Positions 1 to 12,304 of a stretch of 12,710 bases of DNA are shown piece by piece. The stretch comes from a virus. The notes below the pieces were generated by a model. The model had not been told where the DNA came from. It did no database searches and worked only from the letters and a program-made list of their open reading frames with translations. Position 1 is the stretch's first letter, and every line of letters begins with the position of its first letter. Both the position numbers and the translations under genes were made by a program. Where the stretch lies: IMG/VR virus record IMGVR_UViG_3300002460_002611, one strand, 5' to 3'.

Positions 1-1440
1 GGCAAGCTGCCCGATGAGTTCGTCCAGGAGTGGGTGAGGAAGGGCGAGGAGTTCATCGCGCTCTGGAACGAGTGCCTGTCGTTCGACCTCGTCGTGCCCT
101 ACCTCATCGACCTGGGCTACGATGAGCCGTTCTTTGGGTCCCTGTCACGTCGCATCATGAAACTGAGGTCGGCTGAGGTCCCGACGGCGGGCGTCTGCGT
201 TGATCGCGGCCAGCTGATGATGCTCTGGAACCCAATCTTCTTCAAGAAGGGTCTCGACGAGTGTCACATCCAGGGCGTCCTGAAGCATGAGCTGTATCAC
301 GTCATCCTGGAGCACATCACCAGCCGGCGTCAGACGCCCCACGTCCTGTGGAACGCGGCCACAGACCTGGCGATTAACTCACTCATCCCGCGGCAGGAGC
401 TGCCTGACTGGTGCCTCCACGCGGGTGAGATGTATAAGCCTGCGAAGGCGCCCCCCGACTGGAAGCCGGGCATCATGGCCCGCATCATCAAGGGGCTGCC
501 CAAGAACCAGAGCTCTGAGTGGTATATGAACCAGTTCCTCATGGACCCTGAGGTGCAGCAGGCCATGGCCAACGCTCGTGCTGCCGCAGGGCAGAGACCC
601 AAGCAGGGTGAGGGCGATGGTGGAGGCGCGGGTGGCCCTGGACAGCCTGGCGATGGTCAGGACGGGGGCCAAAAGAGCAACGACGGTGCATTCGAGGACG
701 AGCTCAGGAGGGAGCTCTATGGTGACGGCGGGGGCCAGTTCGACGACCATGACATCTGGGACAGGCTGACAGAAGAGCAGCGCGACGTGATGCGTGAGCA
801 TGTGCGAGGCCTGTTCAGGGACTGCGTCCGCGAGGCTGAGAGCAACGCAAAGGGCTGGGGCAACATGCCCGACAGCATCAGGGCGCACCTGAGGAAGGTG
901 CTGTCACGTGAGATCGATTGGCGTGACCTGATCAGCAGGTTCGTGGGCAGGTCAACGACGACAAAGACTACGTCGTCCATCAAGCGCGTGAACAGGCGCT
1001 ATCCATGGGACCACCCGGGCAGGAAGCGTGCCCACAGCGCCCGGCCCGTCTTTCTCATGGACCAGAGCGGATCGATGCGTGATGAATGGGTCGAGCTGCT
1101 GTTTGCTGAGGTCAGCAACATGGGCGTCATCACTGAGTATGACATCGTCCCGTTCGACCACACAGTCGATGAGGAGAACGTGCAGAGGGTGCGGAGGGGC
1201 ACGCAGCCCAAGCTTGTGAGGACGAGGTCGGGTGGGACGAACTTCAGCGCTGCGGTCGAATGGGTCAATAAGTGCCCAGGACGTCACGACGTGGCATTTT
1301 TGCTGACGGATGGCGAGTGCTTCTCACCCGTCAAGTGCAACATCCCACTGGCATACATCTTGGCGCCGGGCTGCCAGCTCCACTTTGAGCCCCCCGCCGG
1401 GACGATCGTGATAAACATGACTGACACTCGGAAGGGCTAA
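1..1440 (+). CDS. 5'-partial CDS: putative HExxH zinc-metallopeptidase-like domain (DUF2201_N type) fused to a C-terminal vWA-like domain. Reading frame is open to the window edge, so the true start is probably upstream; first in-frame GTG is at 34.
   Basis: 'HELYHVILEH' (nt 286-315) followed by 'WNAATDLAINS' matches the DUF2201 N-terminal putative metallopeptidase signature. 'VFLMDQSGSM' (nt ~1048-1077) is a vWA MIDAS-like DxSxS motif followed by the 'VPFDHTVD' strand typical of the DUF2201 vWA-like domain. A Gly/Asp-rich linker separates the two halves. No stop codon lies between nt 1 and 34 in frame. Confidence 0.8.
   Translation, partial: GKLPDEFVQEWVRKGEEFIALWNECLSFDLVVPYLIDLGYDEPFFGSLSRRIMKLRSAEVPTAGVCVDRGQLMMLWNPIFFKKGLDECHIQGVLKHELYHVILEHITSRRQTPHVLWNAATDLAINSLIPRQELPDWCLHAGEMYKPAKAPPDWKPGIMARIIKGLPKNQSSEWYMNQFLMDPEVQQAMANARAAAGQRPKQGEGDGGGAGGPGQPGDGQDGGQKSNDGAFEDELRRELYGDGGGQFDDHDIWDRLTEEQRDVMREHVRGLFRDCVREAESNAKGWGNMPDSIRAHLRKVLSREIDWRDLISRFVGRSTTTKTTSSIKRVNRRYPWDHPGRKRAHSARPVFLMDQSGSMRDEWVELLFAEVSNMGVITEYDIVPFDHTVDEENVQRVRRGTQPKLVRTRSGGTNFSAAVEWVNKCPGRHDVAFLLTDGECFSPVKCNIPLAYILAPGCQLHFEPPAGTIVINMTDTRKG
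598..753 (+). repeat. Low-complexity Gly/Asp/Gln-rich coding segment (inter-domain linker) inside the metallopeptidase-vWA CDS
   Basis: Translation 'GQRPKQGEGDGGGAGGPGQPGDGQDGGQKSNDG...YGDGGGQFDD'; the nucleotide sequence is built of ggy/gay codon reiterations. Confidence 0.6.
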
Positions 1441-2251: not shown

Positions 2252-2518
2252 ATGAGGGCAGCAGAGCTGTGTCCGGGCGGCCTGTGTAGCAGCTCTGCTG
2301 TCTCTGTGATAGACTCACAGGGTAGAACCCATCTCTTCTCTGACGACAAACCGTTGTGGACAGCGTTGTTCATCAGACGTTATCACGTTAAGTGGGGGTT
2401 GGTCGGTCCGTATGAAGAGTTTCTGTTCATCTCGCCCCAACTCGGGGTGATGAAGGTGACCACAACAAGCCTGCAATATATCATGTTTGTCCAATCGCTA
2501 GACGATTGTGTGGAGTGA
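2252..2518 (+). CDS. Hypothetical protein, possibly a divergent member of the paralog family
   Basis: Starts 3 nt after the previous stop. The C-terminus 'YIMFVQSLDD' resembles the family tail 'LTLVSSLD / VSLVQRLD'. Weak 'PGGLCS', 'QGRTHL' and 'PLWTALFI' segments echo the GDL, GHL and EPLIFLG motifs. Confidence 0.45.
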   Translation: MRAAELCPGGLCSSSAVSVIDSQGRTHLFSDDKPLWTALFIRRYHVKWGLVGPYEEFLFISPQLGVMKVTTTSLQYIMFVQSLDDCVE

Positions 2519-2523
2519 ATGCA

Positions 2524-2832
2524 ATGCTGCTTGACCTCCCTTCTACGCTCATCCCAGGCGCCCTCTATGCCCTAGAGGGTGAGATTGGGCTCACAACAGA
2601 GACCACGCCCCGAGGAAGGTCTCAGCACTTGCTGTTACGTATTGGTGCGATACGTCATGCATCGGTAGGACAAGTGGAACCGCTGGTCTTTATCAAGACT
2701 ACGTTGGCTGGAAAGAACGCGCCAGGCATGTCAATGCACTGGTTCATGTCGAGGCTGGGTCCGTGCTACAGGAACACGCTCCCTACGAGCCTTTATCTCG
2801 TGCAGGAGGTCGCTGATGCCGACAGTGAATGA
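2524..2832 (+). CDS. Member of the paralog family. The ORF track starts at TTG 2506; ATG 2524 is preferred, with GGAG 8 nt upstream.
   Basis: 'LIPGALYAL...EPLVFIKT...FMSRLGPCYRN'. The 3' end overlaps the next gene's start. Confidence 0.65.
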   Translation: MLLDLPSTLIPGALYALEGEIGLTTETTPRGRSQHLLLRIGAIRHASVGQVEPLVFIKTTLAGKNAPGMSMHWFMSRLGPCYRNTLPTSLYLVQEVADADSE

Positions 2833-3907: not shown

Positions 3908-4192
3908 ATGAATGAGAAGTTTGATGTGGGAGACCTTGTCGGCATAGTGGGTGTCAGCTACAACGGGCTGTCTGACGACGGACACCTCCTGAATGGAGGA
4001 TACTGCGATGTGGGTTGCCAGTGCGGCGCCTCGCCACCCGCACACCACATGCTTCTGCTATACATGGGCAGCGACTACAACTACAAGCATTTCGAATCTA
4101 TCCATTGGTTCCTGACGCAGACGGGGGAGCGCTGCTGGCGATACTCGACAGAGCACCTCATACTCGTGTCATCACATGATGGGATGCTATGA
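3908..4192 (+). CDS. Paralog family member, Cys-rich-insert subgroup
   Basis: 'FDVGDLVGIVGV...DGHLLNGGYCDVGCQCG...HHMLLLYMG...WFLTQTGERCWRY...LILVSSHD'. AGGAG lies 6 nt upstream, and the next gene starts by ATGA overlap. Confidence 0.75.
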   Translation: MNEKFDVGDLVGIVGVSYNGLSDDGHLLNGGYCDVGCQCGASPPAHHMLLLYMGSDYNYKHFESIHWFLTQTGERCWRYSTEHLILVSSHDGML

Positions 4193-4461
4193 CGTTGGGC
4201 TTGGGCGTAGAGATGCAGCCCGGTGACCTCGTGGGTCTCGCTGGCGTCAGGACAGTCTCATTGCAGACAGATGGGTGGTTGTCTAACTGTAAGATGTGTG
4301 TGGGATCGTGTGGATGCTGGTCGGGGCAGCCGCATGTGTGGTTGCTGTATCTGGAGCGTAAAGGATACTGTAATTACTTCCTGACATCTGCGGGCTCAAT
4401 CTGCTTCCGCTACGGAAGCAGGCGTGAGTATGTCGTGGTCTCCAGAGACAGGATATTGTGA
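4189..4461 (+). CDS. Paralog family member, Cys-rich-insert subgroup
   Basis: 'QPGDLVGLAGV...DGWLSNCKMCVGSCGCW...VWLLYLE...YFLTSAGSICFRYG'. ATGA overlaps at both ends. Confidence 0.75.
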   Translation: MTLGLGVEMQPGDLVGLAGVRTVSLQTDGWLSNCKMCVGSCGCWSGQPHVWLLYLERKGYCNYFLTSAGSICFRYGSRREYVVVSRDRIL

Positions 4462-4751
4462 TGACGAAAAGTGCTGCAGACATCAAGTCGGGAGACCTTG
4501 TGGGTGTGAGATCGGGGAGCATGTTTGAGCTGGACCCAGAAGGGCACCTGATGAATGGGTTCTGTTCAAGGGTTGGCTGCACGTGCCACCATGAAGAGGG
4601 TGGGGTGGTGCACATGCTGTTGCTCTACATGGGCCCTAGCACTCACATTGCCGATGTTTCGGGTCCAGTCCATACGTTCCTGATGCCGACAGGACAGGCA
4701 TGCTGGCGCTACGGATACAACAACCTGACGCTGGTCTCATCGTTGGACTAG
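4458..4751 (+). CDS. Paralog family member, Cys-rich-insert subgroup
   Basis: 'KSGDLVGVRSG...EGHLMNGFCSRVGCTCHH...VHMLLLYMG...FLMPTGQACWRYG...LTLVSSLD'. Confidence 0.75.
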   Translation: MMTKSAADIKSGDLVGVRSGSMFELDPEGHLMNGFCSRVGCTCHHEEGGVVHMLLLYMGPSTHIADVSGPVHTFLMPTGQACWRYGYNNLTLVSSLD

Positions 4752-4752
4752 G

Positions 4753-5148
4753 ATGTTCGCCCTTACTGGGACGCTACGTTACGACATCATGCTGGGCTAC
4801 GGACACAGGCTCGTCGTTGATGTTGAAAGGGACGTCGCGAGGTTCTATGCAGCATTGGTCCCAAGGAGCGTGGGCATCAGGTCGCAACGCTATGCGCCCC
4901 ATGTGACAGTCGTCAGGCTTGAGACGCCCAGCATGATGTCTGCATGGGGCATGAGGCAGGGCCAGCGTGTGAGCATGTGGTATGACCCGTACGTCTACAA
5001 CGACGAGAGGTATTACTGGCTTCGCGTGCACTCAGATGAGCTTCTTGACGTCAGGAAGGAGCTCGGGCTGCCATCATCGAGCAGGTTGAGCAGGCCGCCT
5101 GACGGCGTCGAGTGCTTCCACATGACGATAGGGAACACAAAGCCATGA
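4753..5148 (+). CDS. Small 2H-phosphoesterase-superfamily protein (LigT / cyclic phosphodiesterase / Acb1-like), 131 aa
   Basis: Two H-x-T-x motifs flanked by hydrophobics with typical spacing: 'APHVTVVRL' (His50, nt 4900-4902) and 'ECFHMTIGN' (His123, nt 5119-5121). It starts 2 nt after the upstream stop and ends in an ATGA overlap with the next gene. Confidence 0.7.
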   Translation: MFALTGTLRYDIMLGYGHRLVVDVERDVARFYAALVPRSVGIRSQRYAPHVTVVRLETPSMMSAWGMRQGQRVSMWYDPYVYNDERYYWLRVHSDELLDVRKELGLPSSSRLSRPPDGVECFHMTIGNTKP

Positions 5149-5477
5149 GCAAAAGAGAGAAGCTGAGGCTTGCGCAGCTGGTCCAGGGCGACCTGCTGCA
5201 GCTGCGTTGCTACGATGCATCACGACTAGAGATCGGTGACAACGAAGGTCACCTGTGCGGAGACATCTACGATCCTGAACGTCATGACCTCTTCGACGCC
5301 AAGCGCTTCGACAGGTGCACCGCACTCGTCCCGTTCATCTACCTGGGTCCTCATGATGTCAAGCATTCCAACACAGCAGCCAGGCTCCTGTCACCCACAC
5401 ACGGTGTCTGCTGGCGTTATGTGTGCCATGCCCTAGAGCTGGCGCAGCCCGTGTCAGCGTGTGAGGAGGACCAGTGA
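5145..5477 (+). CDS. Paralog family member. The ORF track start is GTG 5112; ATG 5145 is preferred because it forms an ATGA overlap with the 2H gene stop.
   Basis: 'LVQGDLLQL...EGHLCGD...VPFIYLGP...LLSPTHGVCWRYV'. Confidence 0.7.
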   Translation: MSKREKLRLAQLVQGDLLQLRCYDASRLEIGDNEGHLCGDIYDPERHDLFDAKRFDRCTALVPFIYLGPHDVKHSNTAARLLSPTHGVCWRYVCHALELAQPVSACEEDQ

Positions 5478-5478
5478 C

Positions 5479-5802
5479 ATGCATATGAATGAGCTACACA
5501 ACTACAAGAGCCCGACGGGTGAGGTCTGGAACGCGGGTGACCTGTGTGCGCTCACGATCACTGGCCCATTTTCTCTACGTGTAGAAGTTGAATACGTGAC
5601 CCAGGGTCACCTTATCGGGGCCACTGGTGGCTTGGATGAGCCCCTCATCTTCTTGGGTGTGTCATACAACGATGACTACAGCCGCTTGATCGCGTATCTC
5701 TTGTCTTTTAGGTTCGGTGCGTGTTGGAGGTTTGTGTGGTCCGACCAGACGGGTGGGTTGAAGCGTGTCCAGCAGCTGCAGCCTGATGTGTCGTCGCAGT
5801 GA
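5479..5802 (+). CDS. Paralog family member. The track start is GTG 5461; ATG 5479 is preferred, with AGGAGGA 8 nt upstream and 2 nt after the upstream stop.
   Basis: 'GEVWNAGDLCAL...QGHLIGATGGLDEPLIFLGV...LLSFRFGACWRFVW'. Confidence 0.7.
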   Translation: MHMNELHNYKSPTGEVWNAGDLCALTITGPFSLRVEVEYVTQGHLIGATGGLDEPLIFLGVSYNDDYSRLIAYLLSFRFGACWRFVWSDQTGGLKRVQQLQPDVSSQ

Positions 5803-5825
5803 GTGAAGGCCGAGGAGAACGTAAC

Positions 5826-6131
5826 ATGGACAGCCTCATATGCAACGGAGAGACATGGGCGGTCGGTGACATGTGCAGCTATGATGGTAGAAATGCCTTA
5901 GGCCAGTTTTGCATCGACCAACACAACAGCTGGTATCCCAACCACCTGCTAGGCAGGCCTGCTATCCCAGAGCCCCTCATCCTCATGGCGATAGAGCGGC
6001 ATGAGATACTCACGGCTGCACACGTCGTGTGGTTCATGTCTGTGACGTTCGGGCTGTGTTGGCGCTTGGTGTGGCCGGATGATGCAGACGATGTCGTGCT
6101 ATGTCAGAAGCAGTCTGAGACTGCACCATGA
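5826..6131 (+). CDS. Paralog family member. The track start is GTG 5799; ATG 5826 is preferred, with GAGGAG 8 nt upstream.
   Basis: 'GETWAVGDMCSY...NHLLGRPAIPEPLILMAI...WFMSVTFGLCWRLVW'. Confidence 0.7.
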   Translation: MDSLICNGETWAVGDMCSYDGRNALGQFCIDQHNSWYPNHLLGRPAIPEPLILMAIERHEILTAAHVVWFMSVTFGLCWRLVWPDDADDVVLCQKQSETAP

Positions 6132-6463
6132 TGGTGCCCAGGCTTGAACAGTTCCTGCAATCACGTGATGAGACGTGGCATGCAGGCGACCTGTGCGCGT
6201 TTGTGGAAGTGCACGGTGTGGACCTCACGCCGTATGTGGATGAAGAAGGTCACCTCCTTGGCAGTCCTATTGAGCCCATGCCCCTCATCTTTCTGGGCGT
6301 CTGTTGGTCAGAGAACAGAGAATACAGGAAGGTATGGTTCATATCGCCCGTGCACGGTCCCTGCTATAGAATCATCAATGACGCATCAAGGGGTCGGGTG
6401 CATCATGTGAGTCGGGCGCAGACGATCGCTAGCGTCACAAGGAGCATGCATCATGACACATGA
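6128..6463 (+). CDS. Paralog family member (ATGA overlap with the upstream gene)
   Basis: 'DETWHAGDLCAF...EGHLLGSPIEPMPLIFLGV...WFISPVHGPCYRI'. Confidence 0.7.
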   Translation: MMVPRLEQFLQSRDETWHAGDLCAFVEVHGVDLTPYVDEEGHLLGSPIEPMPLIFLGVCWSENREYRKVWFISPVHGPCYRIINDASRGRVHHVSRAQTIASVTRSMHHDT

Positions 6464-6710
6464 TATGCCTCTTCCGGGCGACCTGCTTATGTTCGCCACG
6501 AGCAATTGGTCAGTGCCTGACATGAGGCCCAACGGTTTCCTCTATGCCCGCCATACGTTGACATCGAACAATCAGCTAGCTGATTGCTTTGAGCCAGTCA
6601 TGATGCTATGTGACGAGGAGACGACGGGTCGCGTTCACCTGCTATCTGCTAGGTTTGGTCTGTGCTGGTGGTGGCGAGATTGGCTATTGTATCGTCATGT
6701 CGGCGCCTAG
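6453..6710 (+). CDS. Paralog family member (11-nt overlap with the upstream gene; alternative ATG at 6465)
   Basis: 'LPGDLLMF...NGFLYAR...EPVMMLCDEE...HLLSARFGLCWWW'. AAGGAG lies 8 nt before ATG 6453. Confidence 0.65.
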   Translation: MTHDMPLPGDLLMFATSNWSVPDMRPNGFLYARHTLTSNNQLADCFEPVMMLCDEETTGRVHLLSARFGLCWWWRDWLLYRHVGA

Positions 6711-6740
6711 CCTGGCTCATTGGGGTGCAGCCACTTAGAG

Positions 6741-6762
6741 CAGCTGGTGACAGCTGGTGACA
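6741..6762. repeat. Perfect tandem duplication of the 10-mer 'cagctggtga' (2 copies plus 'ca') in the only sizeable intergenic gap inside the paralog array
   Basis: 'cagctggtgacagctggtgaca' read directly from the sequence; it lies just upstream of, or overlapping, the start of the 6757/6766 gene. Confidence 0.6.
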
Positions 6763-6765
6763 TAC

Positions 6766-7083
6766 ATGGGTGATAAGCTACAGCCGGGTGCCCTGCTTGC
6801 GTTAGTCATGAAGCCTGGGTTCATGCCCGCTGCGACAGATGACGGGCAGCTGTATGCACAGGGGCTCATAGGTCTAGCTGCGCCGTGGTTGCAGAGGCAC
6901 GTTGAGCCTATGATCCTGCTTGGCCGTGAGCTGATCCAGTCGCGTGTATCTTATAAGCTCATGCTGCTGTCAGCTAGTCTAGGCCCATGCTGGTGTTGGA
7001 ACTTGGTATTGAGTGATGATGACATATTTTCATGTCGCCTCATCGTGGTGAGAGCCCATCCAGGTGGAGCAACTAATGGATGA
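6766..7083 (+). CDS. Paralog family member (the track start is GTG 6757; ATG 6766 is equally plausible)
   Basis: 'QPGALLAL...DGQLYAQ...EPMILLGREL...LLSASLGPCWCWN'. Confidence 0.65.
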   Translation: MGDKLQPGALLALVMKPGFMPAATDDGQLYAQGLIGLAAPWLQRHVEPMILLGRELIQSRVSYKLMLLSASLGPCWCWNLVLSDDDIFSCRLIVVRAHPGGATNG

Positions 7084-7336
7084 CATCAACCTGGATGGCT
7101 GCATCATTGAGGCGGGCGACCTTCTGGCGTTCAATGCTCCCGCGTGTGTGGAGGACGACCAGCTCCTGCATGATACTTCTTTTGGTGTGTATGTGACAGA
7201 GCTGCTTATCTACGTGGGCGCTGAGAGGTTCCCAGGAAAACCAGACTCGAGGTTCTGGTTCCTGTCCATCAGGTTCGGCCTGTGCTTCAAATGGACGAAC
7301 AGCTACCTGACGTTGGTGCAGCGAAGGGGATGGTGA
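7076..7336 (+). CDS. Paralog family member. The track start is GTG 7064; ATG 7076 is preferred, with GGTGGAG 6 nt upstream.
   Basis: 'IEAGDLLAF...DDQLLHD...ELLIYVGAER...WFLSIRFGLCFKW...YLTLVQRRGW'. Confidence 0.7.
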   Translation: MDDINLDGCIIEAGDLLAFNAPACVEDDQLLHDTSFGVYVTELLIYVGAERFPGKPDSRFWFLSIRFGLCFKWTNSYLTLVQRRGW

Positions 7337-10119: not shown

Positions 10120-10181
10120 GGCGTGAGGGTCCTCACGCCGGTGTGGGATGGGGCATCATCTTCATGGGTGGTGCCCCATCC
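10120..10181 (+). terminator. Two consecutive GC-rich hairpins immediately downstream of the MVP stop; candidate transcription terminator or RNA structure (no clean U-tract)
   Basis: Hairpin 1: 'ggcgtgagg' (10120-10128) / 'cctcacgcc' (10131-10139) are perfect reverse complements with a tiny loop. Hairpin 2: 'ggatggggca' (10146-10155) / 'tgccccatcc' (10172-10181) form a perfect 10-bp stem with a 16-nt loop, followed by 'gtgtattctgtg'. Confidence 0.3.
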
Positions 10182-10222: not shown

Positions 10223-10567
10223 ATGGGACTAAACGTGGGAGATGCTGTGCGGCCTGTCGTGGCCCTTGAGCTGAGGGAGCTTGAGGACGTCTACGGAAAG
10301 GCATTCAACCAGGCCATCCCAGGACGCTCAAAGAAGAACGTGACACGTGATGGTCACACGTTCCTTGACGGCTACCTGGGCATCTACCTCGGACCCAAGT
10401 ATCGTCAGATGCGTGACAGGCGGGGCGATGCGGGCTGGGTGCACAGGCTATTCCACTGCTTTCTGTTCGGGGGCGTGGAGGTGATGATAGATCCGCAGCA
10501 CATAGAGCTCGTAGCTGTCGAGCAGGCAGAGACAAGCGCAGACGATCCAACCGACGAGGAGGACTGA
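10223..10567 (+). CDS. Hypothetical protein (114 aa), acidic C-terminus; possibly a very divergent relative of the paralog family
   Basis: N-terminal 'GLNVGDAV' resembles the 'LNVGDLL' start of the truncated family member at 12513. 'DGHTFLDGYLGIYLGPKY' loosely echoes the GHL / LIFLG motifs. It ends in a TGATG overlap with the next gene. Confidence 0.5.
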   Translation: MGLNVGDAVRPVVALELRELEDVYGKAFNQAIPGRSKKNVTRDGHTFLDGYLGIYLGPKYRQMRDRRGDAGWVHRLFHCFLFGGVEVMIDPQHIELVAVEQAETSADDPTDEED

Positions 10568-11397
10568 TGACGATCGACATTGAGGCCGTTCCCTACAGGA
10601 CAACGCTTGACCAGATCGATGTGCCCGATGCGCTGAAGAGGCGCTATGCCTTCCACTCAGACCACGACAGGCGTCTCATGTTCGTCACGAGCCTGTTTGG
10701 CGGGCAGGGCATTGCACCATCGACAGTCACGCTGTTGACGGGCAACCCGGGCGCCGGAAAGAGCACCCTTGCTGTCCAGATGGCACAGGCATTGCATGCA
10801 CGAAGCGACTGCCTGGTCCTGTTCAACGGGCTGGAGGAGAGCCTGCACCAGACGCGCATTGTCGCTGACCGACTGTTCAGGAACTCCACACCCCCATTCT
10901 TCGTCGGGACAGACACGCTCGTGACGAGCCGGAACCCAAAGATGAACGGGCGCGTGCAGGCTGAGACGAAGTCGGGAAAGCGTCGCGCTGTGCTGGACCA
11001 CGTCCAGGTCCTTGCTGCTGCGCATCCGAACAGACAGCCCATCCTGATCGTGGACTCGCTGCAGTGCCTCGATGATGGACACTATCCCGATGGGTTTATC
11101 AACAGGTCCAGCACCCTGCGTGCATTGAAGCTCGTCAGGAGCTTCTGCAAGCAGACGTACGCGGCTGCCATCCTGATCGGGCAGGTTACCAAGAGCGGGG
11201 ATCCCGCTGGAGACAACAAACTAATTCACAACATCGACGTTCATATCCACCTGGGCATCGACACCAAAGAAAAGTCAGAGACCCAGGGCATGCGGATAGC
11301 GACGACCAGAAAGAACCGTTTTGGAGTTGCAGGGCAAACACATATCTGCAACATGTGGCCAACAGGTCTGGTCGAAGAGAACTCGTTGGTTACGTAG
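10567..11397 (+). CDS. RadA/Sms-like RecA-superfamily ATPase, core ATPase domain only (no N-terminal zinc finger or C-terminal Lon-like domain)
   Basis: Walker A 'LLTGNPGAGKSTLAVQMA' (nt ~10735-10790); 'LFNGLEES' EES motif of the KaiC/RadA clade; Walker B 'PILIVDSLQ'; 'IGQVTKSGDPAGDNKLIHNIDVHIHL' aligns with RadA 'GHVTKEGxIAGPxxLEHxVD'; hallmark RadA/Sms 'KNRFG' at nt 11311-11325. Confidence 0.8.
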   Translation: MTIDIEAVPYRTTLDQIDVPDALKRRYAFHSDHDRRLMFVTSLFGGQGIAPSTVTLLTGNPGAGKSTLAVQMAQALHARSDCLVLFNGLEESLHQTRIVADRLFRNSTPPFFVGTDTLVTSRNPKMNGRVQAETKSGKRRAVLDHVQVLAAAHPNRQPILIVDSLQCLDDGHYPDGFINRSSTLRALKLVRSFCKQTYAAAILIGQVTKSGDPAGDNKLIHNIDVHIHLGIDTKEKSETQGMRIATTRKNRFGVAGQTHICNMWPTGLVEENSLVT

Positions 11398-12304
11398 GGC
11401 AAATCTCTTACGCACATTTCTGCATCAAGCGGCATAGTTATGATGCATGAAAAGAAAAGGTCGTTCTGACCAAAGGAAGTATCACTTCACATACAAGACA
11501 ACATGCCTTGTAACAGGAAAGTACTACTACGGCATGCATAGCACAGACAAGATGGACGATGACTATCTGGGTTCAGGACAGATCCTTCGCTACTCAGTGA
11601 AGAAATACGGACCTGAGAATCACGTACGTGAGGTGTTACAGCTGTTCTCTGATAGAGCATCGCTCATCCAAGGTGAGAAGGAGCTTGTGACAGAGAGTGT
11701 GGCTGCAGGACCCATGTGTATGAACATGTGCGCAGGAGGTGCGACATCAAGGGGTGGTCCTCGACAGAAGAGACCCTACAAGCCTAGGGGACCCATGCCC
11801 GAGGAGACGAGGCTTAAAATATCACTATCGAATATGGGAAAGAAGCACAGCAAAGCCACGAGACGAAAGATGTCGAAGGCCAAGCTGGGAAAGACGTGGA
11901 CTTGGAACAAACCGATGTCAGATGAGCAGAAGAAGCAGATATCGGATACGTTGAAGGGCAAGAAGCTCTCTCCCTGGAACAAGGGGATAAAGATGGGTCC
12001 TCTATCTGATGAACAAAAGCAGAAACTTTCAATGTCCTTGAAGGGAAAAAACAAGGGCAAGAAGATGTCTGACGCGCAGAAAGAGCTTCTACGCCAGATC
12101 AATCTAGGAAAGAAGCACACTGCGGAAGCTAAGGCTAGGATGTCAGCTTCAAAAAAAGGGAAGAAAAAACCACCTCGCTCAGCTGAGCATTGTAAGAACA
12201 TGTCTGAGGCGCATAAGGGAAAAGTCCTATCAGAAGAACATAAGCGAAACATCAGTGAAGGTATGAAGATAGCCTGTGCTAAAAAGAAACAAGAGAGTAA
12301 GTGA
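11398..12304 (+). mobile_element. Probable homing-endonuclease gene insertion (compositionally distinct cassette) between the RadA-like gene and a paralog-family gene
   Basis: The AT-rich 49-nt leader (11398-11446) and the HEG ORF have a codon and GC profile clearly different from the flanks (many AAA/AAG/AGA/ATA codons), typical of a laterally mobile HEG. Confidence 0.6.
11447..12304 (+). CDS. GIY-YIG homing endonuclease with C-terminal array of NUMOD3 DNA-binding repeats (free-standing HEG)
   Basis: N-terminal 'KYHFTYKTTCLVTGKYYYGMHSTDKMDDDYLGSGQILRYSVKKYGPENHVREVLQLFSDRASLIQGEKELV' matches the GIY...YIG / conserved-Glu layout of T4 Seg / I-TevI-like enzymes. The C-terminal half has at least 6 reiterations of 'S/HxEQKxKIS.xxKGKK' (NUMOD3). 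GC content is markedly lower than in neighbouring genes. Confidence 0.85.
   Translation: MKRKGRSDQRKYHFTYKTTCLVTGKYYYGMHSTDKMDDDYLGSGQILRYSVKKYGPENHVREVLQLFSDRASLIQGEKELVTESVAAGPMCMNMCAGGATSRGGPRQKRPYKPRGPMPEETRLKISLSNMGKKHSKATRRKMSKAKLGKTWTWNKPMSDEQKKQISDTLKGKKLSPWNKGIKMGPLSDEQKQKLSMSLKGKNKGKKMSDAQKELLRQINLGKKHTAEAKARMSASKKGKKKPPRSAEHCKNMSEAHKGKVLSEEHKRNISEGMKIACAKKKQESK

Follow-up and report, generated by a model that had tools for sequence, protein, structure and literature searches.

Three adjacent genes in a 12,710-nucleotide stretch of viral DNA (IMG/VR record IMGVR_UViG_3300002460_002611; hereafter the window, meaning the whole stretch that was analyzed) encode small proteins, here called P1, P2, and P3, each with three Cys residues and one His residue placed close together in a single loop. 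The question raised by this locus is whether these residues form a metal site and, if they do, what such a site would do for the proteins carrying it. The reading favored here, to which slightly better than even chances are given, is that the Cys3His loop is a mononuclear metal site, most likely occupied by structural zinc, that rigidifies a loop of an SH3-like binding protein. We infer the binding of a metal, the identity of that metal, and the role in binding alike from the sequences.

The three plus-strand open reading frames (ORFs), starting at 3908, 4189, and 4458, were found as a preliminary description of the window had given them, together with the peptide strings quoted there; the loops, of 18–21 residues, contain GYCDVGCQCGASPPAHH in P1, NCKMCVGSCGCWSGQPH in P2, and GFCSRVGCTCHH...VVH in P3. 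A single regular expression, C-x(3,4)-C-x-C-x(5,8)-H-[MV]-[LMW]-L-L-Y, matches P1–P3 and also their five Cys-bearing homologues, in agreement with the common C-x3-4-C-x-C plus His pattern proposed earlier, and the GDLVG motif said to be shared is present in all three. Two further motifs described as common to the trio hold for P1 and P3 and not for P2, in which HVWLLYLE stands in place of H-M-L-L-L-Y-M-G and GWL in place of the GHL preceding the loop. The claim that only these three paralogs carry an insert was not borne out, with loops of 18–26 residues occurring in the paralogs starting at 2506, 5112, 6453, and 6757; what is unique to the trio is the Cys/His content of the loop, not an insert.

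The genes are closely coupled. An AGGAG lies 6 nt upstream of the P1 ATG, the P1 stop and P2 start overlap as ATGA, the P2 stop overlaps the P3 start—placed by metagenome gene callers at ATG 4461—and the ATG of the following gene, encoding a 2H-type phosphoesterase, lies one base 3′ of the P3 stop. As had been stated, the trio sits exactly between the CYTH-kinase gene and the 2H gene, and the same arrangement is found in two relatives: L011, a haplotype about 9% diverged and represented by 1433 bp, and L016, a 44-kb Logan contig of a distant syntenic relative. Given these overlapping starts and stops, the synteny in L011 and L016, and a ratio of nonsynonymous to synonymous substitution rates (dN/dS) of 0.25–0.44 for P1 and P2, P1–P3 are real genes under selection. 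High GC content does yield many long spurious ORFs on both strands, from which it could be argued that these ORFs are not genes or that the Cys pattern arose by chance in GC-rich sequence. That explanation is effectively refuted: gene calls in 15 contigs, drawn from different samples, include all three ORFs, their frame is conserved in L016 with amino-acid similarity and almost no DNA similarity, dN/dS is below 1, the AlphaFold2 models are confident, and a hidden Markov model (HMM) of the surrounding paralog family scores all 12 of its members at 1e-22 to 1e-32.

Conservation of the ligand-type residues is the principal evidence for a metal site. In L011, the three genes between the same two neighbors keep all four residues. 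In L016, where three genes likewise lie between the CYTH-kinase and 2H genes, Cys3His is kept in two of the three positional counterparts (43–55% identity), the loops of which read YCPRSCRCYQEPPLPHMMLLY (Q1) and MCTGVCSCWSKDTHVWLLY (Q2). None of the eight Cys-bearing sequences departs from the three Cys and the His, even though P1 and Q1 are only 43%, P2 and Q2 55%, and P1 and P2 36% identical. By the preliminary description, a zinc-binding subfamily would be refuted if the insert were not conserved in homologues, and the idea survives this check: four Cys/His ligands conserved among homologues, as expected of a generic mononuclear zinc site, were found in both lineages, except in the third counterpart, Q3, which lacks the cluster. 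In a seven-sequence alignment, C37, C39, and H47 are the sole invariant columns of the 20-residue loop, with the first Cys always present, although offset by one position in P3; the chance that three random invariant loop positions would all be Cys or His is 60/6840 = 0.009, a figure calculated post hoc.

Around these residues, change is frequent. The ligand codons vary synonymously between copies (TGC/TGT, CAC/CAT), the residues between the ligands change among the Cys-bearing sequences, and the substitutions separating strains in the P1 loop fall at D34, G36, G40, A41, and A45, never at Cys or His. P2 has two extra Cys residues, C34 (4288–4290) and C61, that are not conserved in Q2, and in P3, H44 and H45 adjoin the C-x-C. 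The long loops of the paralogs without the Cys motif (2506, 5112, 6757, and 7064) are 19–33% identical to those of their L016 orthologues and change in length, whereas the P1/Q1 and P2/Q2 loops are 41–55% identical, unchanged in length, and conserved to the same degree as the barrel; constraint therefore acts on the Cys loops and not on the others, which drift.

Structure models, built from near-identical database proteins, place the Cys segment on a small barrel. With AlphaFold2, P1 was modeled with a predicted local distance difference test score (pLDDT) of 83.5 and a predicted template modeling score (pTM) of 0.76, and P3 with scores of 79.2 and 0.72, respectively. Both models are all-beta with the same seven strands, and the Cys segment is a coil that links strand 3 (GHL) to strand 4, the long central one. 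The fold is that of an SH3-like beta-barrel, a five-strand, partly open barrel superposable on SH3, KOW, and Tudor domains, and, by strand order, the variable loop would correspond to the end of the SH3 RT loop, on the usual ligand-binding face; the closest known folds are thus the small SH3-like barrels (SH3, KOW, Tudor/chromo, PsaE/NdhS, and the CarD N-domain). P1–P3 gave no match in Pfam (SH3, KOW, and Tudor families included), PHROG, or NCBIfam, and the family in the window has a signature of its own. A PDB sequence search with the subclade profile gave 0 hits at E ≤ 10, and Foldseek against BFVD gave only matches at E ≥ 0.04, to unnamed phage proteins. Other small SH3-like phage proteins (of Klebsiella phage Miami and Aeromonas phage phiA8-29, and DUF4314) are short and phage-encoded like the trio, but are weak structural matches (Foldseek E 0.04 or worse) with no sequence relation. 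Among the SH3-like families retrieved, none has a Cys3His loop at the position seen in P1–P3.

On these grounds, P1–P3 are viewed as probable cytoplasmic SH3-like beta-barrel proteins of about 95 amino acids within a fast-evolving 12-copy array of a large groundwater phage. In every family member, the surface loop from GHL to the central strand is free in length and sequence; in the trio subclade, it gained C-x3/4-C-x-C-x5-8-H, the three thiolates and imidazole of which probably chelate one Zn2+. The family-invariant Cys of the CWR motif could be an alternative fourth ligand. In the alignment, the His is specific to the trio subclade, other members having E-P there, and it is therefore the better candidate. 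The metal would convert a floppy loop into a rigid mini-module on the SH3-like ligand-binding face, giving P1–P3 a distinct, fixed surface for binding a host or phage macromolecule. The N-termini of P1–P3 are hydrophilic, and no signal peptide is visible in the sequences, so that a reducing cytoplasm is expected, an environment favoring metal ligation over disulfides.

Comparison with catalogued sites shows likeness in ligands and difference in spacing. The retroviral-type CCHC knuckle (PF00098, C-x2-C-x4-H-x4-C) resembles the trio's loop in being mononuclear, with three Cys and one His in about 13–17 residues. It differs in that the order in the trio is CCCH, with spacings of x3/4, x1, and x5–8, in that no CxxC turn is conserved in the trio (P2 has CKMC, which Q2 lacks), and in that the trio's module sits in a barrel loop rather than standing alone. 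The classical knuckle was rejected on its unlike spacing, no Pfam family matching P1–P3 at E ≤ 0.1; of the zinc-binding knuckle subfamily suggested earlier, the conserved Cys3His stands and the knuckle does not. The CCCH zinc finger (PF00642, C-x8-C-x5-C-x3-H) was likewise set aside, having the same ligand order, an unlike spacing, and no Pfam hit. The post-SET zinc site of SET-domain methyltransferases consists of C-x-C-x4-C and one distal Cys. As the trio's loop may do, it combines three close Cys residues, including a C-x-C pair, with a ligand from the core domain (compare H47 or C76 of P1); the fold is unrelated, the order of spacings reversed, and the function enzymatic, making this an analogy only.

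The same Cys3His set would also suit a cofactor other than zinc, either a [2Fe-2S] cluster, as in CDGSH/mitoNEET proteins, or Cu(I), as in CxC-rich fungal copper sensors, in which case P1–P3 could be redox or metal sensors or scavengers. The mitoNEET-type 2Fe-2S center is indeed another example with such ligands. The CDGSH signature, C-x-C-x2-[ST]-x3-P-x-C-D-G-[SAT]-H, is absent from P1–P3 on direct reading, and with no Pfam hit either, a CDGSH domain was rejected. Cu(I) sites typically contain C-x-C pairs, as in the REP motif of SpCuf1, CXCX3CXCX2CX2H (PMC4992176), and P3 has its extra His beside the C-x-C (C-T-C-H-H). In spacing and residue order, however, the trio matches neither CDGSH nor the copper REP motif, the latter needing five Cys and a His; no Pfam match to such families was found, and with only four conserved ligands, within 13–17 residues, the cluster is as large as a single-metal site. 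In small cytoplasmic proteins, such sites are filled far more often by zinc than by anything else. Another cofactor is considered very unlikely. A Cys3His loop on this SH3-like phage family, which is orphan and fast-evolving, would be a variant of familiar principles, a view that is plausible but unproven.

Several observations weigh against structural zinc. Q3, the positional counterpart of P3, lacks the whole GHL–Cys segment while keeping the His; since it is retained in L016 all the same, one relative at least can do without the cluster. In P3, the first Cys is one residue out of register with that of P1, the distance from GHL to C-x-C being unchanged. Block means of pLDDT in the loop are 63 and 76 for P1 and 58 and 61 for P3, with values below 50 at the first P3 Cys. 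No catalogued zinc motif matches in spacing, and no zinc-finger Pfam family was hit; C-x-C, moreover, is an uncommon zinc chelate. Sampling is also thin, with two phage lineages and their strain variants being all that was found in 15 billion proteins.

Three of these points—the two lineages, the loop left unordered by AlphaFold2, and a Q3 that manages without the cluster—would equally suit a loop that binds no metal, in which Cys and His are kept for packing, partner contact, or a reactive thiol, or only seem conserved because few related sequences are known. In the same direction, other paralogs are somewhat Cys-rich without conserved loop Cys (the one starting at 5112 has six Cys, and those in its loop are missing from the orthologue), and one Cys is invariant throughout the family although no metal partner for it is obvious. 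This explanation is at odds with the invariance of four ligand-type residues where everything between them changes (36–55% identity, synonymous codon turnover) and with a loop length that is fixed only in the Cys-bearing members. Three surface-loop Cys within seven residues are rarely kept without a metal in a cytoplasmic protein. A metal-free loop is thus regarded as doubtful, if a real possibility.

The trio belongs to a single paralog family, represented in the window by 12 plus-strand ORFs of 85–121 amino acids (Table 1), with the aligned signature GDL ... G[HW]L ... EPLIFLG ... FLS..G.CWR ... L.LVQ. Membership was defined as GDL ... G[HW]L ... hydrophobic strand + G ... FL[ST] ... G-x-C-[WYF]-R ... 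L-x-L-V, a pattern to which P1–P3 conform; the family HMM scores them at 2e-29, 3e-24, and 2e-28, and no other ORF within 20 kb reaches 0.01. None of the 12 members matched Pfam, PHROG, or NCBIfam, and NCBIfam gave no match for the neighbors of P1–P3. HMMER, run exhaustively against 1.84 billion cluster representatives, returned 20 hits, two of them spurious; the other 18 all come from the window's phage population and one relative. The giant proteins P0019 and P0020 were rejected as members, being spurious repeat matches (TPR proteins). No match to P3 was found by tblastn in 50,697 phage records, a scan of IMG/VR with the subclade pattern gave 28 pattern matches and 0 relatives, and a JGI metagenome scan with P0017 gave no match.

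The stretch joining GHL to the central strand varies in every paralog and forms a loop of 8–26 residues. The G of GDL and the C of CWR are the sole columns without variation among all 25 family sequences. The Cys of this G-x-C-[WYF]-R motif is retained even in members without any other conserved Cys; it could serve in packing, as a reactive thiol, or as a metal ligand in P1–P3. A YkuD-like G-C-x-R catalytic motif was considered for it and rejected, with no Pfam hit and with differing spacing and fold.

The family evolves far faster than its surroundings. Between the window and L016, the enzymes and a vault-like protein encoded downstream are 79–91% identical (CYTH-kinase, 80%; 2H phosphoesterase, 79%; vault-like protein, 91%), with dN/dS of 0.07–0.13, and paralog family members are 35–57% identical; the flanking enzymes evolve 4–10 times more slowly than the trio in amino-acid sequence. 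Between the window and L011, identity and dN/dS are 93% and 0.09 for the kinase C-terminus, 84% and 0.25 for P1, 90% and 0.44 for P2, and 81% and 0.83 for P3. In P3 (4461–4748, compared with 1002–1289 of L011), 18 codon differences are nonsynonymous and three purely synonymous, with Cys and His untouched, a pattern indicative of relaxed or positive selection between strains. A further haplotype, L010 (119–962), is recombinant, with a P1 of the L011 type (12 amino-acid changes) and a P2 and P3 identical to those of the window; exchange of segments within the array therefore takes place between strains. Family copy number differs as well, with 12 in the window and 10 in the relative. Gene conversion between P1 and P3 was rejected, the only stretches of similarity being of 15–24 nt at conserved motifs, as was the idea that a diversity-generating retroelement makes the loops vary, since the window contains neither a long template/variable repeat pair nor a reverse transcriptase.

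The trio had been described as a recently duplicated subclade. In neighbor-joining trees of the array members, the eight Cys-bearing sequences form one clade with Q3 as sister (bootstrap 52–80%; P2+Q2, 96–100%), so that a trio subclade is moderately supported. Recency is not: the members are 34–44% identical to one another, and their synonymous differences are saturated (proportion of synonymous sites differing, 0.70–0.85). P1 has an orthologue of its own in L016, as does P2; the duplication that gave P1 and P2, like the Cys motif, is therefore older than the divergence of the two phage lineages. In the trees, P3 may have separated from P1 either before or after L016 diverged.

This tempo has a possible bearing on function. 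The array could be a repertoire of SH3-like binders in which the RT-like loop diversifies so that each paralog hits a different host factor, such as a defense or takeover target, and the Cys3His loop would then be a previously undescribed zinc-stapled solution within the repertoire. Divergence 4–10 times faster than that of the enzymes, the dN/dS near 1 of P3, the recombinant haplotypes, and the copy numbers of 12 and 10 all fit such a repertoire, which is nevertheless judged improbable as a specific account.

The neighbors of the trio suggest another role. P1–P3 could act with the CYTH-kinase and the 2H phosphoesterase in an RNA end-healing or nucleotide-processing cassette, with the zinc loop recognizing RNA or a nucleotide. 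The position of the trio between both enzyme genes is kept in the window, L011, and L016, with coupled start and stop codons; in the tRNA ligase of fungi and plants, end healing is the work of a P-loop kinase and a 2H cyclic phosphodiesterase; nucleic acids are often bound by KOW, Tudor, and SH3-like barrels, which were among the structure-search hits; and 2H enzymes have been proposed as RNA-repair components in jumbo phages (PMC7824862). However, the synteny covers the whole array, so that the adjacency of the trio carries little specific information, and the slower evolution of the enzymes argues against tight co-adaptation. The 20 kb examined showed no RNA ligase. In Pfam, moreover, the 2H assignment is a weak one, with a 2H-SAK score of 20.5 bits, under the curated cutoff of 27, and a PDB search with the protein gave no meaningful match. 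Such a cassette is considered decidedly improbable.

As to its source, the window consists of tightly packed genes, all on one strand, and aligns with 68.9–89.2 kb of a 128-kb groundwater metagenome scaffold (Rifle, PRJNA268031); at least 10 other assemblies hold near-identical copies. Neither Rfam families nor tRNAs were found anywhere in the window, and megablast of the whole window against the 50,697 phage records gave no match. The only phage-database homologues of the vault-like protein are three "uncultured phage" records of 462–735 kb (38% identity); together with the jumbo-phage homologues of the DUF2201 protein, these make a large phage the likely source. The first viral major vault proteins (MVPs) have been claimed in a preprint, from gut phages (10.1101/2023.11.10.566534, 2023), and the vault-like protein of the window is a groundwater example of a viral MVP-like ORF. 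A strong terminator-like hairpin (10146–10181) lies 3′ of this ORF.

Further features of the array and its surroundings were observed. The member starting at 5112 (5112–5477) contains six Cys and eight His; four non-loop Cys (R-C-Y, C-W-R-Y-x-C, and an A-C close to the C-terminus) are common to it and its L016 orthologue (11195–11536), and its two loop Cys are not kept there. It may represent a second, different Cys arrangement in the family. Two ORFs of about 88 amino acids inside the array (1982–2248 and 2252–2518) have no family HMM match; compared with their L016 counterparts, the product of the first shows 86% identity, far above the surrounding paralogs, and that of the second only 35%. 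The array is headed by a 44-amino-acid ORF (1446–1580), gene-called in five independent contigs; its product has a strongly hydrophobic core and, after it, a tail rich in Lys and Arg (MCEYVYAALFAAFMVVMVVVVLVLDVVERRAKKRKQKKQENTWI), and is probably a small membrane protein. Within the array, no site resembling a promoter or a terminator was found, and its 12 copies are probably co-transcribed. Upstream of the window (L001, 2538–3758 and 5382–6980), a MoxR-type AAA_5 ATPase gene lies a few genes before the DUF2201 gene, the pair being accompanied by a sigma-70 family gene and an HSP20 gene, and L016 has the same layout. The NUMOD3 homing endonuclease gene follows the KaiC-like ATPase gene in the window and lies upstream of the DUF2201 gene in L016 (3062–3937); it is mobile, having moved between relatives.

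Table 1. Positions of the genes and candidate sites discussed (window coordinates)
Feature	Position	Strand	Remarks
DUF2201 metallopeptidase/VWA protein	34–1440		Homologues in Vibrio and Bacillus jumbo phages
Paralog family, ORF starts	1571, 2506, 3908, 4189, 4458, 5112, 5461, 5799, 6128, 6453, 6757, 7064	+	
Upstream family members without Cys loop	1571–1864, 2506–2832	+	Two non-family ORFs between them; from alignment and HMM scores
CYTH + AAA_28 P-loop kinase fusion, 360 amino acids	2816–3898	+	Pfam AAA_28 4e-21, CYTH 3e-4
P1, predicted SH3-like small protein, 94 amino acids, Cys-loop member 1	3908–4192	+	
P1 candidate metal site, C33-x3-C37-x-C39-x7-H47	4004–4048	+	Codons 4004–4006, 4016–4018, 4022–4024, 4046–4048
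P2, 90 amino acids, Cys-loop member 2	4189–4461	+	
P2 candidate metal site, C37-x3-C41-x-C43-x5-H49	4297–4335	+	
P3 (= P0002), Cys-loop member 3	4458–4751	+	97 amino acids from GTG 4458 or 96 from ATG 4461
P3 candidate metal site, C36-x4-C41-x-C43-x8-H52	4563–4613	+	Numbering from GTG 4458
Family-invariant Cys of G-x-C-[WYF]-R	P1 C76, 4133–4135; P2 C72, 4402–4404; P3 C82, 4701–4703	+	
2H-type phosphoesterase, 131 amino acids	4753–5148	+	PHROG 12204 5e-17; weak Pfam 2H-SAK 6e-4
Seven downstream family members without conserved Cys loop (5112, 5461, 5799, 6128, 6453, 6757, 7064)	5112–7336	+	
Major-vault-protein-like protein, 883 amino acids	7446–10097		Pfam MVP_shoulder 1e-18, Vault_3 2e-10, Vault repeat
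KaiC/RadA-like ATPase	10567–11397		
NUMOD3 homing endonuclease	11447–12304		GIY-YIG-like N-terminus

The reach of the finding is limited to two uncultivated phage lineages, and zinc-stabilized loops are already a familiar principle. If the loop of P1–P3 does bind zinc, it would be a compact case of a minimal SH3-like scaffold acquiring a metal site in its hypervariable loop, and three members of an orphan, rapidly diversifying phage array would be set apart functionally from the rest. The Cys loop would then also provide a concrete experimental handle on an otherwise unannotated family.
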